Origin: Candidatus Hermodarchaeota archaeon
GTDB taxonomy: Archaea; Asgardarchaeota; Heimdallarchaeia; Hodarchaeales; Hodarchaeaceae
NCBI GenBank assembly: GCA_048886185.1
Contig: JBHLKY010000013.1
Location: forward strand, 30,001-62,000
Reading direction: 5' to 3'
Length of the DNA: 32,000 nt
Under the pieces are notes generated by a model. The model was not told the DNA's origin. It searched no databases and saw only the letters and a list, made by a program, of their open reading frames with translations. Made by a program: the position numbers and the translations under genes. Below, piece after piece: positions 1,753 through 11,541 of the stretch (the stretch's first letter is position 1; every line of letters starts with the position of its first letter).

Positions 1753-2487
1753 ATGGGTATTTTTATAAGAAAGCAGGGTTTAATAGTGATTGGAGAAGAT
1801 CAAATCGTTCTTAATTATCATAAAATACTTTCTCTATTACAAAACTATACATATGGCGTTGAATGTCCCAAGTTGGTCATGGTTACAAAGGATCAGCCTG
1901 TGGATCTGGTTTCGAGAATTTTAAACAAAATAAAATATCCAATTCTCGGGGAAAATCGAGTACAGGAAGCCCTTGAGAAAATAGAAGTGTGTGGGAGTAA
2001 TAAAGCTGAATGGCACTTCATTGGACATCTCCAAAGAAATAAAGTTAAAAAAATTCTCAGAAAATTCTCCTTAATTCAATCAGTAGATAGATTGTCTCTA
2101 GCTAGAGAGATCGAAAAACGAGCATCTCAAGAAAATATAATTGTTAAATGCCTCCTTCAGATTGATATTTGTCAAGATGGCTCTAAATTCGGCTTTTCTC
2201 CAAGTTTGGATATTCTTACAGACGTATTACTTGAAATAAGCTCATACAGGCACTTAAGAATCCAAGGATTAATGACAATCGCCCCATATGTTTCTTCAGA
2301 AGATACTCGTATTTATTTTAGACGCATGCGTACACTATATGAAAAATTAATGAAATATAATGATCTTCCTCTGAATGTAGAGATGAAAATATTATCAATG
2401 GGTATGAGTAATGATTATGTTGAAGCCCTTGAAGAGGGATCTACAATGATTCGTGTTGGAAGAAGCATTTTTAGTGAATATGATTAG
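1753..2487 (+). CDS. yggS: Pyridoxal phosphate homeostasis protein (YggS/PLPBP family)
   Basis: Motifs LVMVTK (PLP lysine), WHFIGHLQRNKVK, GLMTIAP and LSMGMSNDYVEALEEGSTMIRVGRSIF. The true start may be GTG at 1786. Confidence 0.93.
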   Translation: MGIFIRKQGLIVIGEDQIVLNYHKILSLLQNYTYGVECPKLVMVTKDQPVDLVSRILNKIKYPILGENRVQEALEKIEVCGSNKAEWHFIGHLQRNKVKKILRKFSLIQSVDRLSLAREIEKRASQENIIVKCLLQIDICQDGSKFGFSPSLDILTDVLLEISSYRHLRIQGLMTIAPYVSSEDTRIYFRRMRTLYEKLMKYNDLPLNVEMKILSMGMSNDYVEALEEGSTMIRVGRSIFSEYD

Positions 2488-2546
2488 CATTCAACTAATT
2501 AAATAAGGTTATTGGAATAATAAAATTACTAGGAGTGTTATTTTTA

Positions 2547-5500
2547 ATGTCAAATCCTGAAAGTGAATATTCATTATCTAAAAATGAGAATAAACTATTT
2601 ACATCATTAGTAATGTTTGGTGGCCAGACAAAACAGGAATTATTACTCACAGCAGATTTACATGGTGAGAAAGCTGAACAGGCAATTTCAATGTTGCTTA
2701 GCAAAGGATTTATTCAGCTAGATGAGGAAACGGGAATCTTTACACAGTCCCTTCCTCTCCCAAATATTATAGCTTTATTAAAAGAGAGTTCAACAAAAAT
2801 TGAAAATATTAAAAAGGATCAATCAGAGTTATTTCAAGAATATCGAAAATCAACTGGTGAGAACTTAGAAAATCTTCGTGAATCCCTTGAAACGCAATTC
2901 GAGGAATTTAAGGTTTCTAGCAATACGTTACAAACATCCTTGAAAGAAAAATTTGATGAAACGGAACACCAGCGAGCAAAACAGACCGAAGAGCTTGCAG
3001 AAGCACTCATATCATCGTTTTCTACGAGTTCATCCAATCTCCAAACTGAAGTTCATACCACCTTATCTTCTGAGTCCTCATCTTTTGAAAAAGAGTGGAT
3101 TAAGGCTCTTGATGGTTTTCAAAGCATACCTGAAACAGGAACACGAACCTTAAAGGCATCCATTGTAAAATATGAAAGAGAAATATCTGAAATCATCAAA
3201 TCCGCTGTTAAGCAAATATCTTCTATTCAATCTCAACTTTCAGATGTTATAACCGCCATTGAAGTGGAGTCTACAAGTCAAGTTCAGGAATTTTTTATTA
3301 ATACAGAAACTTTTGCGGAGGATTTCAAAACAAACCTTAATACAGGCTTACATGAAACTTGGAAACAAGAAAAAGAATTTTTAAATGAAATTCGTAAGAT
3401 GGTACAAGTTACTTTGGGAAAGGAGATAATTAAAGCCCTAGAGGCGGTAGTAAATAATTTAGCGAAGGAGATAGATGAAGAAATCAATGAGGCTATTATA
3501 GAGGTTAAAAAACAAACCGATACTGCTATAACAACCAGTTCAAACCAAATAAAATCTGAGTTCAATGAGTTTGTGGAAAATTCATCCGAATTAATTCAGG
3601 AACAAAGAACTTCTTTAGACGTTTTAAATACAGAGCTCACGAAATTAACTTCTGAAAAAAAATTAGCAACAATTTCTGATACCTTCAAGCGACAATTACA
3701 AGCATATCTATCTACTGATTTAAATACATTAGAAACAAATTATCGTCGTGTACAAAAAGCAACAACTGATATTATGGAAGAAATTCGGCGTGATGCGAAA
3801 AATGGGTTACTGAAACAAATAAAAAATTTTGAAGAACTTATTAACTCATTTAATATGGTAATTGAGAAATCAATTGCACGAAAAGACATGGATGTAATAC
3901 AATTTCAACAATTATCACAATCAATTGTGCAGTTACTTGGAAATTTATTAATTTCAATTCCTATGAAATCAAATAACTTTAAAGCTACATTAAGAAACTC
4001 TATATACAAATCTATTGAAGAACTCAAAAATGCAAAGGATAAATCATCTTTAGACCCTGTTAAAGATATTTATGACTCTTTAACAAGCACTCAGAAACGA
4101 ATTGAAACATCATTCCAAGAAGCTCTGGAAGAAAGTCAGAATGAAATTCAAAAGGTAATTAGCTCTACAACCCAACTAGGCAATACAGTTTCAAGCCTTC
4201 AAGAATCTTATTTAGAAAAAATTGAGCATCGATTTGAACAAAGAGCCAAAGTTATGAACACAGAGCTAGAAGCTATCGCTCGTAATTTCCAACAAGTCAT
4301 AAAGACAATAGAAGGTGGATTTAATGATATATCACAACAATTATCTTCTGAAAATATTGTCTCAAATCTTGAATCATCACTTCAAACTTCAGTTTCTCAA
4401 CTAAAAAATGATGTTGATCTTACTTTCAGCCAAAATCAAAAGGACTCAAGTGATTACATAACACAATTAGATTCAACTTTTCAAACACATCTAGATCGAA
4501 CTCTTGATGTCATTAAAGAGGGTTTCAGTCAGATAAAGGAGGAGTTCAGTCTAGAATTAGAGAAGCAACTGAAACAAATAGAAACAAATAATGAAAATCA
4601 GCAAAATAACCTGATTTCTGCAATTGATATATTTTCTGGTCAAAACGTGGAACAATTTACTAAGTTTTCGGCTAATATTGCTAAAACACTCGAAGACAGT
4701 CATAAAATTGTAACTGATTTCATCGCTGAAAGTCATCGGACGACATCTGAAGTTGTTGAATTACAAAAGGCGAATATTGATAAGTATCAAGAGAAAGGAA
4801 TTAATGATATTTTATCTTTCGTTAATCAAATAGAATCCGAAGTTTCCTCTCAGAATAAGAAAGTTAAAGATGCCATGGAGGAACTTGAAGGTTATTATAG
4901 TGGTTATTCGGACTCTACTTATGGGGAAGTTTCTAATTTATTACGTCAAGTTCAGGAAAGTGGAGACAGGTTATCATCATTAGTGACTGATTCCTTACAG
5001 AGTGCGACGGAAGATCTAGAGAAGTTAACAGAAGACATCGATCTATATTATACAGACTCCCTAGCTGACTTAGAAAATCAGATAGGCGTTACCTCGGGTT
5101 TTGTTACGTCCGAGATCGAAAATTCTGTTAAAACTATTCAGGAAGAAGTGGAGACTCTGAAAACTGATCTTATTGATGCTTTAGAGGAGTTAGGTAATGG
5201 AATAAAAGATTTTATTGCACGTCAAGATCAGGAATTCCAAATAAAAACTCCAGAACAAGCTCAAGAGTTTTCGCAACTTTTTGATGATTTAATTCAGGAA
5301 CGATCACGTATAAATAATGAATTGGAGGATAATACGGAGGGGATGTTAACAAAACTCGTGGAGGACTGGAATAAACAGATGGAAAAGAGTAAGGAAATGT
5401 TACAGGATGTCTTAAACTCTATGGATAAAGCTATTGAATCAAATCTCGAGAATCTGGAGGTCATCGTTAAGACTAATGTTGAACAGGCTATTCAATCTTT

Positions 5501-6725
5501 CAATAGTATTCTTGACCTTGGATCTTCAAAAGAAGACATCCTAGGGTTAGGTGAAATCCAGACGAAAGTTAAACTTGCAAATAAGCGATTAAAATCAGCA
5601 ATATCCGATAGTTTAAATTCACATATCGAGCAGCTTGACCAACAATTGATACCAGAACTAGTTACATCATATGAAGCTGCCCACACCCAAACTGAAGAAG
5701 ATCTTTCCTCTTATCTAGAAGATTTAGGAGATTTAATTTCTAGCTCACAAACAACATTCACAAATCAGTTGCATAAATATTTGAAAGAAGAACGTCAGAC
5801 TCTTAATTTTTCTGAAATGAAAAATGAATTAAATGAGATTTTGCAAGGTTTTTCACAATCTACGACCGAAGATATTGAATCAATATCATTAAACTTAACT
5901 GATAGCATTCAGATGACTATTAAAGAAGTTGAAAAGTCACGAACACAAATAATTGATATGTTTTCTAATTTATCAACGATAATAGATGAACAGACAGCAA
6001 AATCTATCAATCAATTGAATAAATTCAAAGAAGAACTGTCACAAACTTTTGATACAACAAGCAAGGAGTTTAAAAAAGATCTTTTAGTGAATCTTGACTC
6101 GTATAACAATGACCTCAATAAAACTTCACTTGAACTCACAGGAAAAGCCAATCAAATTACTCAAGCAATTACAGAAGAAGCTGATAACCAAATCTCACAA
6201 GTACTAGATATCTCTCGTGAACTGCATGATAATTTAGCAAATTCAAATAGTCAACATATTGAGACCTTAGAAGCTTTTACTACAGAGCTTTCCAATGTTA
6301 AGCCCGTAGGGTCTATACGTTTAGTCAAACTAACTACTGATGAGGCAAAAAATGAATTTATTATGAATATGATAAGCGCGGCATCCAAACAAGTGACGAT
6401 TATGACATCGAATCCAACTTTCTTATCAGTGGCTGATCTAAAGACCATTCCTTCAGAAAAACGCATTTTCATAATTACAAACTTTGATTTTTCCAAAAAA
6501 GGTAAAAAATGGGTTGCAGAAGTTGGTAAACCAGTAAATATTAACTTTTATAAACTAAAAGCGAATAATATAACTGGAAATCTAGTAATTGGAGACAATA
6601 AATCTGTTCTAGTCCTTCCAAATTCATTAGGTATTACTAGCACAGATGAGAAACTCGTTTCATATTTCTCGGGCACCGCAGGCTTATTAAAAGGTGCTTC
6701 TCTTCAGTTAGAACCCAAAAAATAG
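2547..6725 (+). CDS. Giant TrmB-like protein: N-terminal winged HTH, about 1,170-aa helical/coiled-coil rod, C-terminal TrmB/PLD-like domain
   Basis: N-terminus LSKNENKLFTSLVMFGGQTKQEL...AISMLLSKGFIQ...LP fits the TrmB wHTH pattern. C-terminus EFIMNMISAASKQVTIMT...RIFIIT...LVIGDNKSVLV...GITSTDEKLVSYF fits the TrmB effector domain. The middle is rich in E/S/L/Q/K/T with almost no Pro or Gly. AGGAG at 2531-2535 favours ATG 2547 over GTG 2535. Confidence 0.8.
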   Translation: MSNPESEYSLSKNENKLFTSLVMFGGQTKQELLLTADLHGEKAEQAISMLLSKGFIQLDEETGIFTQSLPLPNIIALLKESSTKIENIKKDQSELFQEYRKSTGENLENLRESLETQFEEFKVSSNTLQTSLKEKFDETEHQRAKQTEELAEALISSFSTSSSNLQTEVHTTLSSESSSFEKEWIKALDGFQSIPETGTRTLKASIVKYEREISEIIKSAVKQISSIQSQLSDVITAIEVESTSQVQEFFINTETFAEDFKTNLNTGLHETWKQEKEFLNEIRKMVQVTLGKEIIKALEAVVNNLAKEIDEEINEAIIEVKKQTDTAITTSSNQIKSEFNEFVENSSELIQEQRTSLDVLNTELTKLTSEKKLATISDTFKRQLQAYLSTDLNTLETNYRRVQKATTDIMEEIRRDAKNGLLKQIKNFEELINSFNMVIEKSIARKDMDVIQFQQLSQSIVQLLGNLLISIPMKSNNFKATLRNSIYKSIEELKNAKDKSSLDPVKDIYDSLTSTQKRIETSFQEALEESQNEIQKVISSTTQLGNTVSSLQESYLEKIEHRFEQRAKVMNTELEAIARNFQQVIKTIEGGFNDISQQLSSENIVSNLESSLQTSVSQLKNDVDLTFSQNQKDSSDYITQLDSTFQTHLDRTLDVIKEGFSQIKEEFSLELEKQLKQIETNNENQQNNLISAIDIFSGQNVEQFTKFSANIAKTLEDSHKIVTDFIAESHRTTSEVVELQKANIDKYQEKGINDILSFVNQIESEVSSQNKKVKDAMEELEGYYSGYSDSTYGEVSNLLRQVQESGDRLSSLVTDSLQSATEDLEKLTEDIDLYYTDSLADLENQIGVTSGFVTSEIENSVKTIQEEVETLKTDLIDALEELGNGIKDFIARQDQEFQIKTPEQAQEFSQLFDDLIQERSRINNELEDNTEGMLTKLVEDWNKQMEKSKEMLQDVLNSMDKAIESNLENLEVIVKTNVEQAIQSFNSILDLGSSKEDILGLGEIQTKVKLANKRLKSAISDSLNSHIEQLDQQLIPELVTSYEAAHTQTEEDLSSYLEDLGDLISSSQTTFTNQLHKYLKEERQTLNFSEMKNELNEILQGFSQSTTEDIESISLNLTDSIQMTIKEVEKSRTQIIDMFSNLSTIIDEQTAKSINQLNKFKEELSQTFDTTSKEFKKDLLVNLDSYNNDLNKTSLELTGKANQITQAITEEADNQISQVLDISRELHDNLANSNSQHIETLEAFTTELSNVKPVGSIRLVKLTTDEAKNEFIMNMISAASKQVTIMTSNPTFLSVADLKTIPSEKRIFIITNFDFSKKGKKWVAEVGKPVNINFYKLKANNITGNLVIGDNKSVLVLPNSLGITSTDEKLVSYFSGTAGLLKGASLQLEPKK

Positions 6726-6748: not shown

Positions 6749-8599
6749 TTAAATAGTTACTAATCCTAGTAATCCTGATCTCTCTAAAGTTTGTTTGTTG
6801 ACCATCCCTTTTAGAGTCAATCCCTTTCGTGAATAATACTTTGTAACCAATTCTTCGTGATTTTTAAAAAAATCCTGTCTTTTTTTAAGGAATATCGCAT
6901 AACAATCTTCATCTCGTGTCATACCCATCCGTGTATTGAAGATTCGTTCTAAAAGAGTTATGCGATTTCCAATTTCTAATAATTTCTTGAAATTCAGGTT
7001 TTCATCAAATACAGCTTTGAGAAGGGATAATAAGGGATTTAATTCTAATCCCCGGCCACTAATTAATAGGTCTGGTAAAAGGTGTACAAGATGATTCTGA
7101 AAATTTTGGTGTAACCAATTGAATCTCTTACGAAATTTTAGAAAAAAAGGAATGTATCTAGAACAGAGCACTAGAGAATCAAGGACTGCGATTAGATTTT
7201 CAAACAATATGATTGCTTCGACTTTTCCTCTCTTGGAAATTGGATTGAGTTTGAAAGGGAGACCTAGAAGCTCGGGGAAGATCATATAATTTGTACGAAA
7301 ACTATTAGCTGCATAAGGGGAAATACCTATAGCTAAACTTTGACCTACAATATTAGGATAGTAATACATCCCTCCCATCTGGTTTTTAATCATGGGAGAT
7401 GGTTCACTAGTTTGTTGATAGAGATATATTTCTCCTCGGGATAACTGATCTCCTAATTCTTCCCTTTGAATGATTTTTTTAATCAACGAATAGATTTTTG
7501 GATTATTCCATTCAAATCCAAGATTAATGTCTAATAGTTTTCTCCTGTCTTCTTGGATGTTGAACAGTGATGCAAGTGCAGCTCCAGTGGAAAGGGGATC
7601 TAAGGCGTCCTTATCACAGGCTTCAATAGCTTTTTGTATTTTCTCTATCTCCACAATCTTCAAATTTGGCCCTAATGACACAAAACTCTGGTATGAATTA
7701 CGTTGACATTGAACAGGGCACTGCCAACACTTAAGCGAATCTTCATAACCATTAAAGGAAGAGATTTTCTCTGGAGATAATTGTAATAAGCGAGAACAAT
7801 TTTTAGCTGGAAGAACAGAATTTTTAATCACTGAAAAAATTGTTGAAAAGGTACCACGGTTATGTAACATTTTAAACCAAGAAGTTTCTTCAAGAGAGTG
7901 CTTAAAGTGCTCAATAAAATCTTGGGAAAGGCCATTCAAATCTTTAATTTTGGGAGGATCTGTAATAACTATGGCTTTGATGTTTTTTGATGCTAGAACT
8001 GCTCCTAATCCTCCACGACGAAAAAAATGTACTTGATCAATCGCTACGCCTGCAAAAGAAACTTGATTTACCGCTGATAATCCTGTTGTAGCAATAGAAG
8101 CATTAACACCATGTTTCGTTCGTAATAATTCGTCAGTTTCAGAAACTGATTTCTTCCAAAATGGATCAGCATCCTCGAGGGTTATATCAGAAAATTCATC
8201 TATCAGGATATACTTGGGAGTTTTGGCACATCCTGATATTTGAAAAAAGTTCATTCCAACATGAGCTAAACTTGCACCGAATCGTCCTGTTGCTACTGAA
8301 GTAAATAAGGTATTAGTCTGAGGAGATTTAAATGTGGCAACAATCATACCAGATGAGGGAAATAATGTTCCAGTAAGAATTCCAGTTCCAAAAATTACCA
8401 CATTATCAGCTCCACGTGGACTAGCATCTGTAGGAATTGATTGATAACTGAGATAAACCGTGATTCCCCTTCCCCCTAGAAAGTTTTCCACTACTCTTGA
8501 CTCGATTGGTATTTTAGGTGAAACTTCTTCTTCAGTTAGATCAAGTGTAACAATTTGTGGGTTCCATGTTTTTAACATTTTTTGGCTGCTCCTTGCCAT
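6749..8599 (-). CDS. Aldehyde:ferredoxin oxidoreductase (AOR) family protein, divergent
   Basis: Motifs FLGGRG, DNVVIFGTGILTG, KSPQT, RRGGLGAVLASKNIKAIV, CWQCPVQC (CxxCxxxC), CDKDALDPLSTG, DSLVLC and ERIFNTRMG. The EYE and GACH motifs are not recognisable. Confidence 0.88.
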   Translation of the reverse strand: MARSSQKMLKTWNPQIVTLDLTEEEVSPKIPIESRVVENFLGGRGITVYLSYQSIPTDASPRGADNVVIFGTGILTGTLFPSSGMIVATFKSPQTNTLFTSVATGRFGASLAHVGMNFFQISGCAKTPKYILIDEFSDITLEDADPFWKKSVSETDELLRTKHGVNASIATTGLSAVNQVSFAGVAIDQVHFFRRGGLGAVLASKNIKAIVITDPPKIKDLNGLSQDFIEHFKHSLEETSWFKMLHNRGTFSTIFSVIKNSVLPAKNCSRLLQLSPEKISSFNGYEDSLKCWQCPVQCQRNSYQSFVSLGPNLKIVEIEKIQKAIEACDKDALDPLSTGAALASLFNIQEDRRKLLDINLGFEWNNPKIYSLIKKIIQREELGDQLSRGEIYLYQQTSEPSPMIKNQMGGMYYYPNIVGQSLAIGISPYAANSFRTNYMIFPELLGLPFKLNPISKRGKVEAIILFENLIAVLDSLVLCSRYIPFFLKFRKRFNWLHQNFQNHLVHLLPDLLISGRGLELNPLLSLLKAVFDENLNFKKLLEIGNRITLLERIFNTRMGMTRDEDCYAIFLKKRQDFFKNHEELVTKYYSRKGLTLKGMVNKQTLERSGLLGLVTI

Positions 8600-8611: not shown

Positions 8612-10069
8612 TTAAATCAGATGCACATACTTCAAGGTAAACTGCCTTTTTAAACAAGATATATCCATAATATTTGTGCCAACAACTTCATCATTGTAAA
8701 GAAAAAGTTCGAGAAGTCGTGCTATAACGATAGAATCACAGGACTCACGTGATTGATCCCTGAAATCCCATAAAGATAAGTACCACTTCTCCTCCTGAAA
8801 TTGCTTTCTATCAATCATACAATCTTGTTTTTCAAGCTTAGTTTTGCTTTTATAAATGAATTTTCCTTTTTGAAATACTAAAACTTCATAGTAGCAATGA
8901 TTAAAGATAACTGTTGAGTTGAATTTGGTGACAACCTCCCAGTTTCCTACAGGTTGATGTTGAACGGTGATTTTATCACGTAATCTTAATCCATGATTCA
9001 TAACATAATCAAATAGATGATTAAGAGTTAATAAATTTTCTGAATCACTCAATGAGTCATAGAGGATCACCAAAATACGACCAGGAAATAATTCATTAAG
9101 AGTTTCTGAAAAATTCGTGTTGAGAATATTCCGAGTTGTATTTCGGCAGTCTAAAAGCAATAAATGGTGTTTATAATTATTATCGATAGAATTGTACTCT
9201 TTCAATGCTTGGGGCAATAATGAATGATCAAGAGAATGGCTTATATTACTTTTTTCTTCTTCTGAATCTACTTCTGGCAGATGAATGATAGTTAATTGAT
9301 CTACATTGAAGTAACTAGTTAAATTTCCAGAAGTAAAACCTGATTTTTTGCGAATTATAGGTATTAAGTCTTCCACAATCTCTATTCCAATTGAATGACG
9401 TTTCATCTCCCTTGCAACTTTCATTGTTGTTCCTGATCCAAGAAACGGATCATAAATCCATGAACCCTTGCGAGAAAAGATTTCAATAAGTCTTTTAGGA
9501 AGTTCATCTGGGAAAGCAGCAACATCCTTTTCAAGACGGCCTTTCAAAGGTAAGACATTCGTTATCTCCCAAATATCATCAATTTGAATGTTTTTATTAC
9601 TAGGAAGATGCAAAGAGAGTGGTTTCTGGAAGATAAGAATATTCTCAATTAAGTTGTCTGGATAATAGTACATTGGATAGGGATTTTGTAATAAGACCCC
9701 ACTTCGTCTACTGATACGAATATATCCTTCTGGTTTCCTCCATACGATCCTCCCTTTCAATTTATAACCTATACTAGAGAATATCTTAATGATATCAGAG
9801 ATAATTGGGTACTTGATGCCCTTTACAAGCATATCATCAATATTTAAACCTACGATCCCTCCAATAGTTAATGCTTCGAAACTAAGCTCCCCAAATCTAG
9901 CAATCATCTCTAAGAACGTCTCATAATTCTGGAAAAGTTCCCTATAATCAAAAGGGGCATTAAAATATGGTGGTGAGGTCACTAAAAGATCAAAAGCTGG
10001 ATATTCAAGAATCTGTTTCGCTTTTGTGCAGTCTCCAATTAGGAGAAGATGTTTTGTGATCGTGATCAT
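8612..10069 (-). CDS. Beta-class (N4-C/N6-A) DNA methyltransferase with a degenerate second MTase-like domain
   Basis: LLIGDC...DLLVTSPPYFN (motif IV) precedes IYDPFLGSGTT...IGIEI (motif I), which is beta order. The C-terminal 185 aa repeat the same scaffold without the catalytic motifs. Confidence 0.9.
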   Translation of the reverse strand: MITITKHLLLIGDCTKAKQILEYPAFDLLVTSPPYFNAPFDYRELFQNYETFLEMIARFGELSFEALTIGGIVGLNIDDMLVKGIKYPIISDIIKIFSSIGYKLKGRIVWRKPEGYIRISRRSGVLLQNPYPMYYYPDNLIENILIFQKPLSLHLPSNKNIQIDDIWEITNVLPLKGRLEKDVAAFPDELPKRLIEIFSRKGSWIYDPFLGSGTTMKVAREMKRHSIGIEIVEDLIPIIRKKSGFTSGNLTSYFNVDQLTIIHLPEVDSEEEKSNISHSLDHSLLPQALKEYNSIDNNYKHHLLLLDCRNTTRNILNTNFSETLNELFPGRILVILYDSLSDSENLLTLNHLFDYVMNHGLRLRDKITVQHQPVGNWEVVTKFNSTVIFNHCYYEVLVFQKGKFIYKSKTKLEKQDCMIDRKQFQEEKWYLSLWDFRDQSRESCDSIVIARLLELFLYNDEVVGTNIMDISCLKRQFTLKYVHLI

Positions 10070-10272: not shown

Positions 10273-11541
10273 ATGGAGTTAAAACAACCAGATAGTGCGC
10301 GTAATTCAACTACTGCCAAACCTAGTTTTATGGTTGACTTTGCTAATGCTTCTCTTTCAACAATATTTTCAATTTTGTTGTGGATCCTATTCTTCCAGTA
10401 CTATCCAGTATTGGGAAGCATTATCCCGCTTTTCTTTGGTATCTCTGTTGGAACTCTAGTTGGGACAGTGATAATAATTTTCTTCACTTATTCGATCCTT
10501 GTCCGGTGGTTTGAAATCTGGGCATATCAAATCGCTTCGTGGCGTTATCCCATCCCATACATGAACTATCGTACAAAGTGTCCATTTCTTCAGCGACGAT
10601 ATCTTACCTTTTCCTGCAGAGCTGAACAAATCGCTCCCTTTGATATCCCAGCCTTTGAGAAATGTCACAAATCATTAATGTGGGAAGCATGTTGGCCTGA
10701 GCGAATTCCTTCAATATTACAAGTGTATGATGAGGCGCCTCCAAATGTAAAGCAGCAGTATTCTTTTATTCTTGCAGCAATGAAAGAAATCGCTTCACCT
10801 GCAGCAGACAAAATGTATGAAGCTCTAACTTCTGAAACCTTAGAAATCCAGGCAAGAGTATCTGCAGGATATGCATTAGAAGAAATGAAAAACGAGAGAG
10901 GAATTGAACCATTAATTTCAATGCTTGGACAATTCGATCAACGTACAAACCAAATGATCCAAGCAATTTTAGTCCGTTATAAAGATATGGCGATGCCCTA
11001 TCTAATTAGTGCAATTCAGAATTGTGAGGGCGATATGCAGTGTGGGACAATCGTTGAAATATTAGGGAAGATAAAACATGATGATAGTGTTGCTACGATA
11101 GAAAATTTATTAACAAACGAAGAAACAGGGGAAGTTACGAGGTTACAATCAATTTATGCATTACAAGAAGTTGGGAGTGAGAAAGCAATGAAGGCTCTTG
11201 TTTCATATTTTAAATCCGCGCCTGCAGAGGAGCATGATATTATTAAAGATGTGTTATTGAATCAAAAATTGATAAGCTTCCCATTATTGATAGAGCTCTT
11301 ATCAGATCCAGAAACTCCAGAAGATTACTATACACGTATTGGTGATATTCTTGCAGATGTTGATGCAATAACATATGATAGATTTTTCACAAAACTCGGT
11401 GAATTAAAAGGATTGGATACCGTTCACAAATTAGCAACAATCTTAAAGGAAAACACTCCAGAAGAAGAAGAATTTCAAAGATTACATGAAGTACTTTCAA
11501 AGCATCAAACTTCTATCCAATCTGAAAATTCAATGGACTGA
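10273..11541 (+). CDS. Membrane-anchored HEAT (PBS-lyase-type) repeat protein with a Cys-rich linker
   Basis: Two hydrophobic segments at about aa 26-46 and 50-76, then CX11CX15CX8C, then HEAT-like repeats (ARVSAGYALEEM..ERGIEPLISML; IVEILGKIKHDDSVATIENLL; TRLQSIYALQEVGSEKAMKALVSYF). Confidence 0.8.
   Translation: MELKQPDSARNSTTAKPSFMVDFANASLSTIFSILLWILFFQYYPVLGSIIPLFFGISVGTLVGTVIIIFFTYSILVRWFEIWAYQIASWRYPIPYMNYRTKCPFLQRRYLTFSCRAEQIAPFDIPAFEKCHKSLMWEACWPERIPSILQVYDEAPPNVKQQYSFILAAMKEIASPAADKMYEALTSETLEIQARVSAGYALEEMKNERGIEPLISMLGQFDQRTNQMIQAILVRYKDMAMPYLISAIQNCEGDMQCGTIVEILGKIKHDDSVATIENLLTNEETGEVTRLQSIYALQEVGSEKAMKALVSYFKSAPAEEHDIIKDVLLNQKLISFPLLIELLSDPETPEDYYTRIGDILADVDAITYDRFFTKLGELKGLDTVHKLATILKENTPEEEEFQRLHEVLSKHQTSIQSENSMD

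Follow-up and report, generated by a model that had tools for sequence, protein, structure and literature searches.

The gene described here raises the question of whether a protein with a TrmB-type domain at each end and a very long helical region between them is a transcription regulator or a structural element, and of how so long a helix is arranged. It lies in a window (the whole stretch of DNA that was analysed) of 32,000 nt from an archaeon of the order Hodarchaeales. This order belongs to the archaeal groups known to be closest to eukaryotes; to our knowledge, little is known of the organisation of DNA, membrane and cytoskeleton in their cells.

The gene and its end domains

A single open frame occupies positions 2535-6725 on the + strand of the window. 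The starts of the orthologues set the initiation codon at the ATG at 2547, which gives a protein of 1392 aa. Full-length orthologues (n=33; 1389-1404 aa, 41-72% identity) are single-copy, and conservation of the protein spans its genus-level lineage. The protein contains no cysteine and 14 Pro residues. Searches with Pfam and NCBIfam revealed no enzymatic motifs, and there was no match to a transmembrane or signal family. A scan for sigma-70 promoters and terminators gave the shuffled expectation, such a scan being ill suited to archaea. A search for sequencing runs yielded four DNA runs from a single sediment study, the probable source, and none of RNA. The features of the locus are as follows, with their basis in brackets.

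1753..2487, + strand: YggS-type PLP-binding gene, upstream neighbour (59 nt gap to the rod-protein gene)
2547..6725, + strand: rod-protein gene, 1392 codons plus stop (single-copy in the genome)
2547..2756, + strand: TrmB-type winged helix-turn-helix (wHTH), aa 1-70 (PF01978 score; match of the orthologue profile to TrmBL2/TrmB; charge count)
2757..4514, + strand: N-arm of the rod, aa 71-656, 586 residues of hendecad helix (periodicity; AlphaFold)
4488..4547, + strand: apex block, aa 648-667 (invariant columns; AlphaFold break; mirror axes at aa 657-659)
4527..6296, + strand: C-arm of the rod, aa 661-1250, about 587 helical residues to aa 1247 (periodicity; AlphaFold)
6297..6722, + strand: PLD-like domain of the TrmB/TrmBL2 type, aa 1251-1392 (AlphaFold model; fold matches; charge; translation)
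6489..6512, + strand: basic loop F-S-K-K-G-K-K-W, aa 1315-1322 (invariant or nearly so in orthologues)

The Pfam TrmB profile (PF01978) matched aa 1-70 with 23.5 bits (E 5e-5), just short of the cut-off of 25.6, and a precomputed PF01978 match is present in many orthologues. For a profile of the 33 orthologues, the best solved chains in the PDB were TrmBL2 (5bpd, E 6e-5) and TrmB (3qph, E 1.9e-4). Judged by sequence, the N-terminal domain is thus a wHTH of the TrmB family, as an earlier note on this DNA had proposed. The wHTH has a net charge of -5, and its wing reads L-D-E-E-T-G; the recognition helix and wing together carry a net charge of -4 in this protein (family mean -3.5), and the basic residues usual in these two elements are absent. 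Among the 23 TrmB-type wHTHs of the genome it is the most acidic, the others averaging +2.5. Given that the wHTH is acidic and that it is the PLD-like domain which is basic, the further proposal that the protein is anchored to DNA by its wHTH appears doubtful.

Comparison of aa 1251-1392 with Pfam and with PDB sequences gave nothing significant, and the C-terminal domain was therefore identified only by fold search. Its AlphaFold model (pLDDT 86.5) matched TrmB 2f5t and 3qph with Z 13.9 and 13.7, respectively (rmsd 2.4-2.8 A over 123-126 residues), and TrmBL2 with Z 11.8; proteins of the PLD superfamily ranked next, and the Foldseek E value for the fold match was 5e-8. The predicted fold agrees with the TrmB/PLD-like C-terminal domain proposed previously. 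One distant relative (P0077) has a precomputed PF11495 match. As read from the translation, aa 1251-1392 include no histidine; hence, the HKD motif (HxK(x)4D) is absent, which indicates that the PLD-like domain is catalytically dead. The domain is basic (net +9, pI about 9.7), and its KKGKKW loop is limited to the orthologue group of the 1392-aa protein, being missing from distant relatives. The structural alignment stops at TrmB residue 244, the point at which the protein ends, as does TrmBL2; the second (sugar-binding) subdomain of TrmB is therefore absent. Pfam TrmB_C had no match in the 1392-aa protein.

On this sequence and model evidence, the protein from this Asgard archaeon is a relative of the DNA-binding protein TrmBL2, a chromatin protein of Thermococcales (PDB 5bpd, 5bqt, 5box and 5bpi), although sequence identity between the two is only about 12%. 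Both have the domain order wHTH, pairing helix and single PLD-like domain, and both are without the sugar-binding subdomain. TrmBL2 is about 264 aa long and its helix comprises about 40 residues, whereas the helix here has about 1,180 residues, is hendecad and probably folds back; further differences are the acidic rather than basic wHTH and the lineage-specific KKGKKW loop in the C-terminal domain. TrmB, the sugar-responsive regulator of Pyrococcus furiosus (3qph, 2f5t), has a wHTH of the same family and gave the best structural match to the C-terminal domain, against TrmB residues 107-244; its second effector subdomain, which follows residue 244, has no counterpart in the 1392-aa protein.

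The hendecad rod

In the AlphaFold model, 97% of aa 71-1250 (about 1,180 residues) is helix. The hydrophobic period of this region is 3.66, with a power of 37 as compared with a shuffle maximum of 9.6, and the power at 3.5 is only 0.4. This periodicity is far beyond chance. Maxima in the hydrophobic autocorrelation lie at 4, 7, 11, 15, 18, 22, 26, 29, 33 and onward, and about three positions per 11 residues are strongly hydrophobic. The segment used as an example in the earlier note corresponds to nt 5151-5237 (aa 869-897) within the C-arm, and the hendecad pattern described for it is present. The claims of about 1,170 helix-forming residues between the termini and of a hendecad rather than heptad pattern therefore hold. 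The end domains, rod length and period were all correctly recognised, and the protein is clearly more than an ordinary regulator. Each distant relative examined also displays hendecad periodicity.

The short amphipathic pairing helix of the TrmB family, of 35-40 residues, is replaced here by about 1,180 residues (aa 71-1250) of 11/3 helix, about 30 times longer, the length of which is strictly conserved and which is probably folded back. Among the 33 orthologues, indels in the rod are of 1-3 residues only, with none of >3. The rod has a net charge of -90. Its polar surface positions show strong conservation from end to end, and so does the apex. Any two 132-residue blocks of the rod score at most 13 bits against each other; hence, an origin as a recent tandem array was rejected. 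A Foldseek search of the PDB with the rod model, itself of low confidence, gave nothing at E <= 0.001.

Topology of the rod and alternative explanations

Three concordant signals centre on the midpoint of the rod. The motif K657-E658-G659-F660 (KEGF) is nearly invariant and is situated at the exact midpoint, between arms of 586 and 587 aa as defined by the domain borders, and a helix break is predicted there by AlphaFold (aa 654-659). Of 425 axes compared, one at aa 659 gives the best mirror symmetry of conservation (r 0.6), and it stays the best after detrending with 101-151-aa windows. APC-corrected mutual information summed on anti-diagonals peaks at i+j of about 1315 (1311-1318) with a smoothed z of 4.8, the peak being 4.8 sd above the entropy-matched null; outside it, unsmoothed z values reach at most 2.6. 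The pLDDT of the AlphaFold model mirrors itself about aa 658 (r 0.89). Two other length classes have a mirror axis displaced by no more than about 10-13 residues from the estimated midpoint of their rods, the signal being weak. The coincidence of conservation, covariation and model confidence at KEGF favours a hairpin of about 87 nm. Hence, a fully extended helix exceeding 100 nm, as envisaged in the earlier note, is disfavoured, and the most likely form, as far as sequence and models indicate, is a rod of fixed length of about 87 nm in which the helix is folded back and both end domains share one head.

Other observations are less readily reconciled with a hairpin. The AlphaFold model of the rod is of low confidence (mean pLDDT 63, pTM 0.26) and rests on the alignment that also served for the covariation test. 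Covariation itself is spread out, its peak covering about 10 residues, and the top single pairs are barely enriched (P 0.04-0.19), so that mirrored regional evolutionary rates could contribute to it; two segments within aa 235-414 of the N-arm give no signal. The profile of hendecad amplitude lacks symmetry (r -0.07). The hydrophobic stripe flips at about aa 367, 602, 995 and 1084-1109 without mirrored counterparts; these flips are compatible with a hairpin only in that every one of them falls at a predicted helix break. The hendecad register is kept at six of the ten predicted breaks, which would equally suit an in-register parallel dimer. Mirror-placed indels of +2 at about aa 604 and -2 at about aa 703 (sum 1307) co-occur in only 4 of 14 sequences.

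In TrmB, the helix after the wHTH pairs two chains. The strongest competing explanation, possible but distinctly less probable, is accordingly a lengthened TrmB coiled coil, i.e. an extended parallel homodimer of about 175 nm with the wHTH pair and the PLD-like pair at opposite ends, which would function as a strut or bridge with two ends. The alignment of the N-terminal profile with TrmBL2 continues from the wHTH into the next helix, and a helix directly precedes the C-terminal domain, as in TrmB. An in-register dimer also matches the unmirrored flips automatically and fits the breaks that keep register. However, it accounts neither for the three signals that are mirror-symmetric about the exact midpoint nor for the nearly invariant Gly-containing motif there, and it would tolerate indels of 7 or 11 residues, none of which was found in the rod. 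Rods of either topology might instead polymerise into a cytoskeletal or nucleoid-associated network, as in intermediate filaments or the bacterial cytoskeletal proteins Scy and FilP, in which hendecad-based rods occur. Contacts such as acidic wHTH to basic C-terminal domain, or apex to apex, would suit the opposite charges of the end domains and the conserved polar surface and apex, and the genome encodes four paralogues with different rod lengths; sequence relationship to intermediate-filament, Scy or FilP proteins was looked for and not found, and filament formation is considered unlikely.

The likeness to apolipoproteins suggested previously is upheld as regards the 11-residue periodicity only. 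The Pfam Apolipoprotein A1/A4/E family (PF01442) matched with 60.8 bits (E 1.8e-16), which is below its cut-off of 90 and reflects the period and polar helix composition shared with exchangeable apolipoproteins; unlike these, the protein is cytoplasmic and archaeal and has neither 11-/22-mer sequence repeats nor proline-punctuated 22-mers, its few Pro residues showing no 22-residue spacing. A coat of amphipathic 11-mer helices on a lipid surface, as in apolipoproteins, perilipins, synuclein and LEA proteins, largely unfolded before binding to a membrane or lipid body, would be in keeping with the periodicity and with the basic-aromatic KKGKKW loop in a fold common to the membrane-binding PLD-like domains of MITD1 and F13. 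Yet the apolar stripe is a narrow one, taking up about three positions in 11, and a disordered coat is not expected to show fixed length, residue-by-residue conservation and arm-to-arm covariation, which makes this explanation quite improbable. Least probable is an ordinary ligand-responsive TrmB-type transcription regulator with a long linker. Both TrmB-family end domains are present, as such a regulator would have, but the usual basic residues of the recognition helix and wing and the sugar-binding subdomain are missing, and there would be no explanation for a strictly conserved rod encoded by about 3.5 kb.

Proposed function and relation to known rods

The preferred reading, in which the protein is a non-enzymatic structural protein from a TrmBL2-like ancestor with a fold-back rod that serves as a spacer or tether, is held as a whole with moderate confidence, on sequence and model evidence. 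Both TrmB-family end domains are retained. The helix is predicted to reverse at KEGF, so that the arm of aa 71-656 would pair antiparallel with that of aa 661-1247 to give a two-stranded, almost straight rod about 87 nm long, with the wHTH and PLD-like domain forming a head at one end and the conserved tip at the other. The scaffold or tether suggested in the earlier note is a viable though hypothetical role. More tentatively, the protein could act as a spacer or tether of fixed length, its head attaching to a polyanionic surface (DNA or acidic membrane) mainly via the basic PLD-like domain and the KKGKKW loop. The acidic wHTH might then serve protein contacts, e.g. TrmB-like pairing of heads, rather than sequence-specific reading of DNA, and the conserved apex might engage a second molecule or partner.

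The arms of SMC, Rad50 and MukB resemble the predicted hairpin in topology only, having a head to which both termini contribute, a long coiled coil that runs antiparallel within one chain, and a conserved length and apex. The leading matches in the fold search with the rod model were MukB, condensin, JetC, cohesin and Rad50, all sub-threshold (E at least 0.011). Unlike SMC and Rad50, the protein has no ABC ATPase head (Pfam/NCBIfam), hinge domain or CxxC zinc hook; SMC arms are mainly heptad whereas the rod is hendecad, and there is no homology. SMC arms are roughly 50 nm long, and the rod, at the predicted length of about 87 nm, would be longer.

Hallmarks of a precise structural element are seen here in a protein that appears to derive from a chromatin protein: its length is fixed, its tip is conserved, and conservation extends to single residues throughout 1,180 helical positions. 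If it is indeed a tether of fixed length, it would represent a new class of architectural protein, in which a regulator fold has been turned into a scaffold; a description of the family was not found in the literature searched on TrmB, Asgard, hendecad and apolipoprotein topics. The genome encodes three shorter paralogues of 714, 760 and 800 aa besides the 1392-aa protein, and the superfamily is Asgard-wide, in discrete length classes. A wider proposal, speculative and on balance rather unlikely, is that these constitute an Asgard family of fold-back tethers that have a TrmBL2 head and resemble SMC/Rad50 but lack an ATPase, the four paralogues being rulers of fixed length (about 35-87 nm) that space or tether chromatin, membrane or cytoskeleton in a primitive nucleoid-organising or nucleoskeleton-like system.

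Comparison of the neighbourhoods of distant relatives revealed no partner gene conserved across the superfamily. The neighbours in distant relatives are unrelated, and hence an operon partner or functional link with the adjacent genes was rejected. The YggS-type neighbour is kept within the lineage only, distant relatives being without it, and the gene order DegT / YggS / rod gene / AFOR is kept in two orthologue loci.

The rod gene, its product and the end domains

The rod protein is encoded by a single uninterrupted frame.

2535–6725 (+), open frame of the rod gene

Orthologue alignments begin at the ATG at 2547, and the product is therefore 1392 aa long, comprising a wHTH (aa 1–70), a helical rod (aa 71–1250) and a PLD-like C-terminal domain (aa 1251–1392). 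It has no cysteine, only 14 prolines and abundant E, S, L, K, T, I, Q and N. The gene is present in one copy in its own genome (4.84 Mb, 96% complete). Two antisense ORFs lie within it, at 3284–3565 (−; 93 aa) and 6251–6496 (−; 81 aa), and are most probably frames open by chance, as the coding sequence is AT-rich.

The earlier note assigned a TrmB-type wHTH and a TrmB/PLD-like domain to the two ends, and both assignments were correct, the former by profile and the latter by fold. Residues 1–100 scored 23.5 bits against Pfam TrmB (PF01978; cut-off 25.6). The best matches of a 33-orthologue profile among solved chains were TrmBL2 (5bpd, E 6e-5) and TrmB (3qph, E 1.9e-4), with the alignment spanning the wHTH and continuing into the next helix. 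For the last 170 residues, neither Pfam nor PDB gave a significant match by sequence. The AlphaFold model of the C-terminal domain was confident (pLDDT 86.5, pTM 0.74), with alternating strands and helices, and Foldseek ranked TrmB at the top (E 5e-8). Structure alignment gave Z 13.9 and 13.7 for TrmB 2f5t and 3qph, respectively (rmsd 2.4–2.8 Å over 123–126 residues, the matched part being TrmB residues 107–244), and Z 11.8 for TrmBL2, followed by Nuc, FAM83, Zucchini, F13 and other PLD-superfamily members. As the domain contains no histidine, the HKD motif is absent. The protein ends at the position aligned with TrmB residue 244; hence, like TrmBL2, it lacks the second effector subdomain of TrmB.

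Periodicity, conservation and shape of the rod

Family-averaged hydrophobicity over aa 90–1250 showed a global period of 3.66 residues with a power of 37; in 200 shuffles the power never exceeded 9.6, and at period 3.5 the family profile had a power of 0.4. Sliding windows gave 3.6–3.76 nearly everywhere in aa 70–1260, and autocorrelation peaked at 4, 7, 11, 15, 18, 22, 26, 29, 33 and onward. Folding the rod on 11 gave three strongly hydrophobic positions and one of partial hydrophobicity, the remainder being charged or S/T/N/Q. The example segment of the earlier note, aa 869–897 (nt 5151–5237), conforms to this pattern. AlphaFold predicted 97% helix for aa 64–1262, in a low-confidence arrangement (pLDDT 63, pTM 0.26). 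The match to Pfam Apolipoprotein, at 60.8 bits below the cut-off of 90, reflects periodicity and not homology, since an internal-repeat search of the rod found none (≤13 bits).

The 33 full-length orthologues, from records named Hodarchaeales, Heimdallarchaeota or Promethearchaeota MAGs, share 41–72% identity, and every one is 1389–1404 aa long. Indels in the rod are of 1–3 residues at only about 10 sites, none of 7 or 11 residues occurring in the alignment; mean column identity is 65%, and numerous invariant positions are polar. As judged by this alignment, the rod protein is built with precision, unlike a spacer whose length can vary. The architecture of a TrmBL2-type head with a fixed-length hendecad rod is well supported.

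Three shapes were weighed, namely a parallel dimer of extended rods, a rod folded back as a hairpin, and a compact bundle. The domain borders place the rod midpoint at aa 660, where the nearly invariant K657-E-G659-F660 is found, and AlphaFold predicted a helix break at aa 654–659. Smoothed conservation is mirrored at aa 659 (i+j = 1318) with r 0.6, the best of 425 axes; detrending over 101 or 151 residues left this axis in first place, whereas a 201-residue window did not. APC-corrected mutual information between all columns of the N-arm (aa 71–656) and all of the C-arm (aa 661–1250), averaged along anti-diagonals, peaked at i+j = 1311–1318 (smoothed z 4.8). Unsmoothed, eight consecutive values had z 2.1–3.7, whereas none of about 1,000 other axes exceeded 2.6, and the peak mean was 4.8 sd over a null with partners swapped for entropy-matched columns. 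AlphaFold confidence along the chain is likewise mirrored, here at aa 658 (r 0.89, compared with a mean of −0.01 and sd 0.27 for other axes), as expected if the model pairs both arms; this signal and the covariation draw on one common alignment. The covariation is diffuse, individual pairs being barely enriched, and N-arm segments within aa 235–414 gave no signal. The hydrophobic stripe flips near aa 367, 602, 995 and 1084–1109 without mirroring between the arms; a hairpin would have to absorb these flips at the helix breaks predicted there. In the ~1000- and ~1120-aa length classes of the family the mirror axis is weakly seen, about 10–13 residues or less from the estimated rod midpoint.

The rod is therefore probably a fold-back hairpin, a topology that is moderately supported. 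At the standard α-helix rise of 0.148 nm per residue, 586 residues give a hairpin of ~87 nm, which is favoured over the extended rod of more than 100 nm proposed previously. The hairpin base would hold the wHTH beside the PLD-like domain, an arrangement also found in compact TrmB proteins.

Charge and candidate attachment

Net charge is −5 for the wHTH, against a family mean of −3, and −4 for the recognition helix plus wing, the latter reading D-E-E-T-G. The wHTH is the most acidic of the 23 TrmB-type wHTHs of its genome, the others averaging +2.5. The rod has a net charge of −90 and the C-terminal domain +9 (family +3 to +12, pI 9.1–10.2). A loop in the latter, F-x-K-K-G-K-K-W (aa 1315–1322), is invariant or nearly so in the 1392-aa orthologues and absent from the distant relatives compared. 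In the family at large, wHTHs range from acidic to neutral, and C-domains differ in charge. The interpretation in the earlier note is partly supported: the two domain assignments, the rod length and the hendecad periodicity stand, but the charges make DNA anchoring through the wHTH doubtful. As to binding target and role, we infer from these calculated charges that, should the head attach to a polyanion (DNA or an acidic membrane), it would more likely do so through the PLD-like domain than through the wHTH.

Distribution and gene neighbourhood

No description of the family was found in the literature searched. The C-terminal domain profile matched only 13 clusters among 1.84 billion representatives. 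In 301 genomes of the phylum, the gene was found in 18 of 20 of the same genus (frames of 1390–1415 codons), with weaker matches in other lineages (~750, 846, 921, 987, 1141 and 1312 codons). All three parts (wHTH, rod, PLD-like domain) are present in four of five relatives extracted, and the fifth has no recognisable N-terminal wHTH in the frame read; the period is 3.66–3.67 in all five. A profile search of longer proteins revealed discrete classes of 846, ~1000, ~1089, ~1120, ~1147, 1330, 1392 and 1462 aa in Thor-, Loki-, Hod- and Hermod-archaeal records, the proteins being for the most part annotated hypothetical or mislabelled SbcC, RmuC or TrmB. Members of the ~1000–1150-aa classes (P0058, P0082 and P0055, labelled Thorarchaeota) have the wHTH preceded by a poly-acidic extension of 40–70 residues with a net charge of −13 to −21, which is absent in the 1392-aa group.

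Three shorter paralogues lie in the source genome (G000), outside the window:

C16:24674–27076 (+), 800 aa
C3:11311–13455 (+), 714 aa
C6 near 202331–202510 (−), 760 aa

Each has the TrmB wHTH, a hendecad rod (period 3.64–3.67) and the PLD-like C-domain (profile E 1.6e-32 to 3e-21); with the 1392-aa protein, one genome thus holds four rod lengths.

The surroundings of the rod gene in the window are:

503–2487, DegT aminotransferase (−) and YggS-type PLP protein (+)
6749–8599 (−), aldehyde:ferredoxin oxidoreductase (AFOR)
8612–10069 (−), 485-aa protein, Pfam N6_N4_Mtase DNA methylase domain in residues 27–240 only
10273–11541 (+), 422-aa protein, HEAT/PBS-lyase HEAT-like repeats

Two orthologue loci (45–59% identity) share the order DegT, YggS, rod gene, AFOR; the distant relatives examined do not, their neighbours being unrelated. 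Neighbourhood comparisons found no partner gene, and the rod gene stands alone. Farther upstream come an XPD-like helicase, a ThiF protein and an unknown protein of 346 aa. The C-terminal half of the 485-aa protein has no Pfam match, and the HEAT-repeat gene is divergent from the methylase gene.
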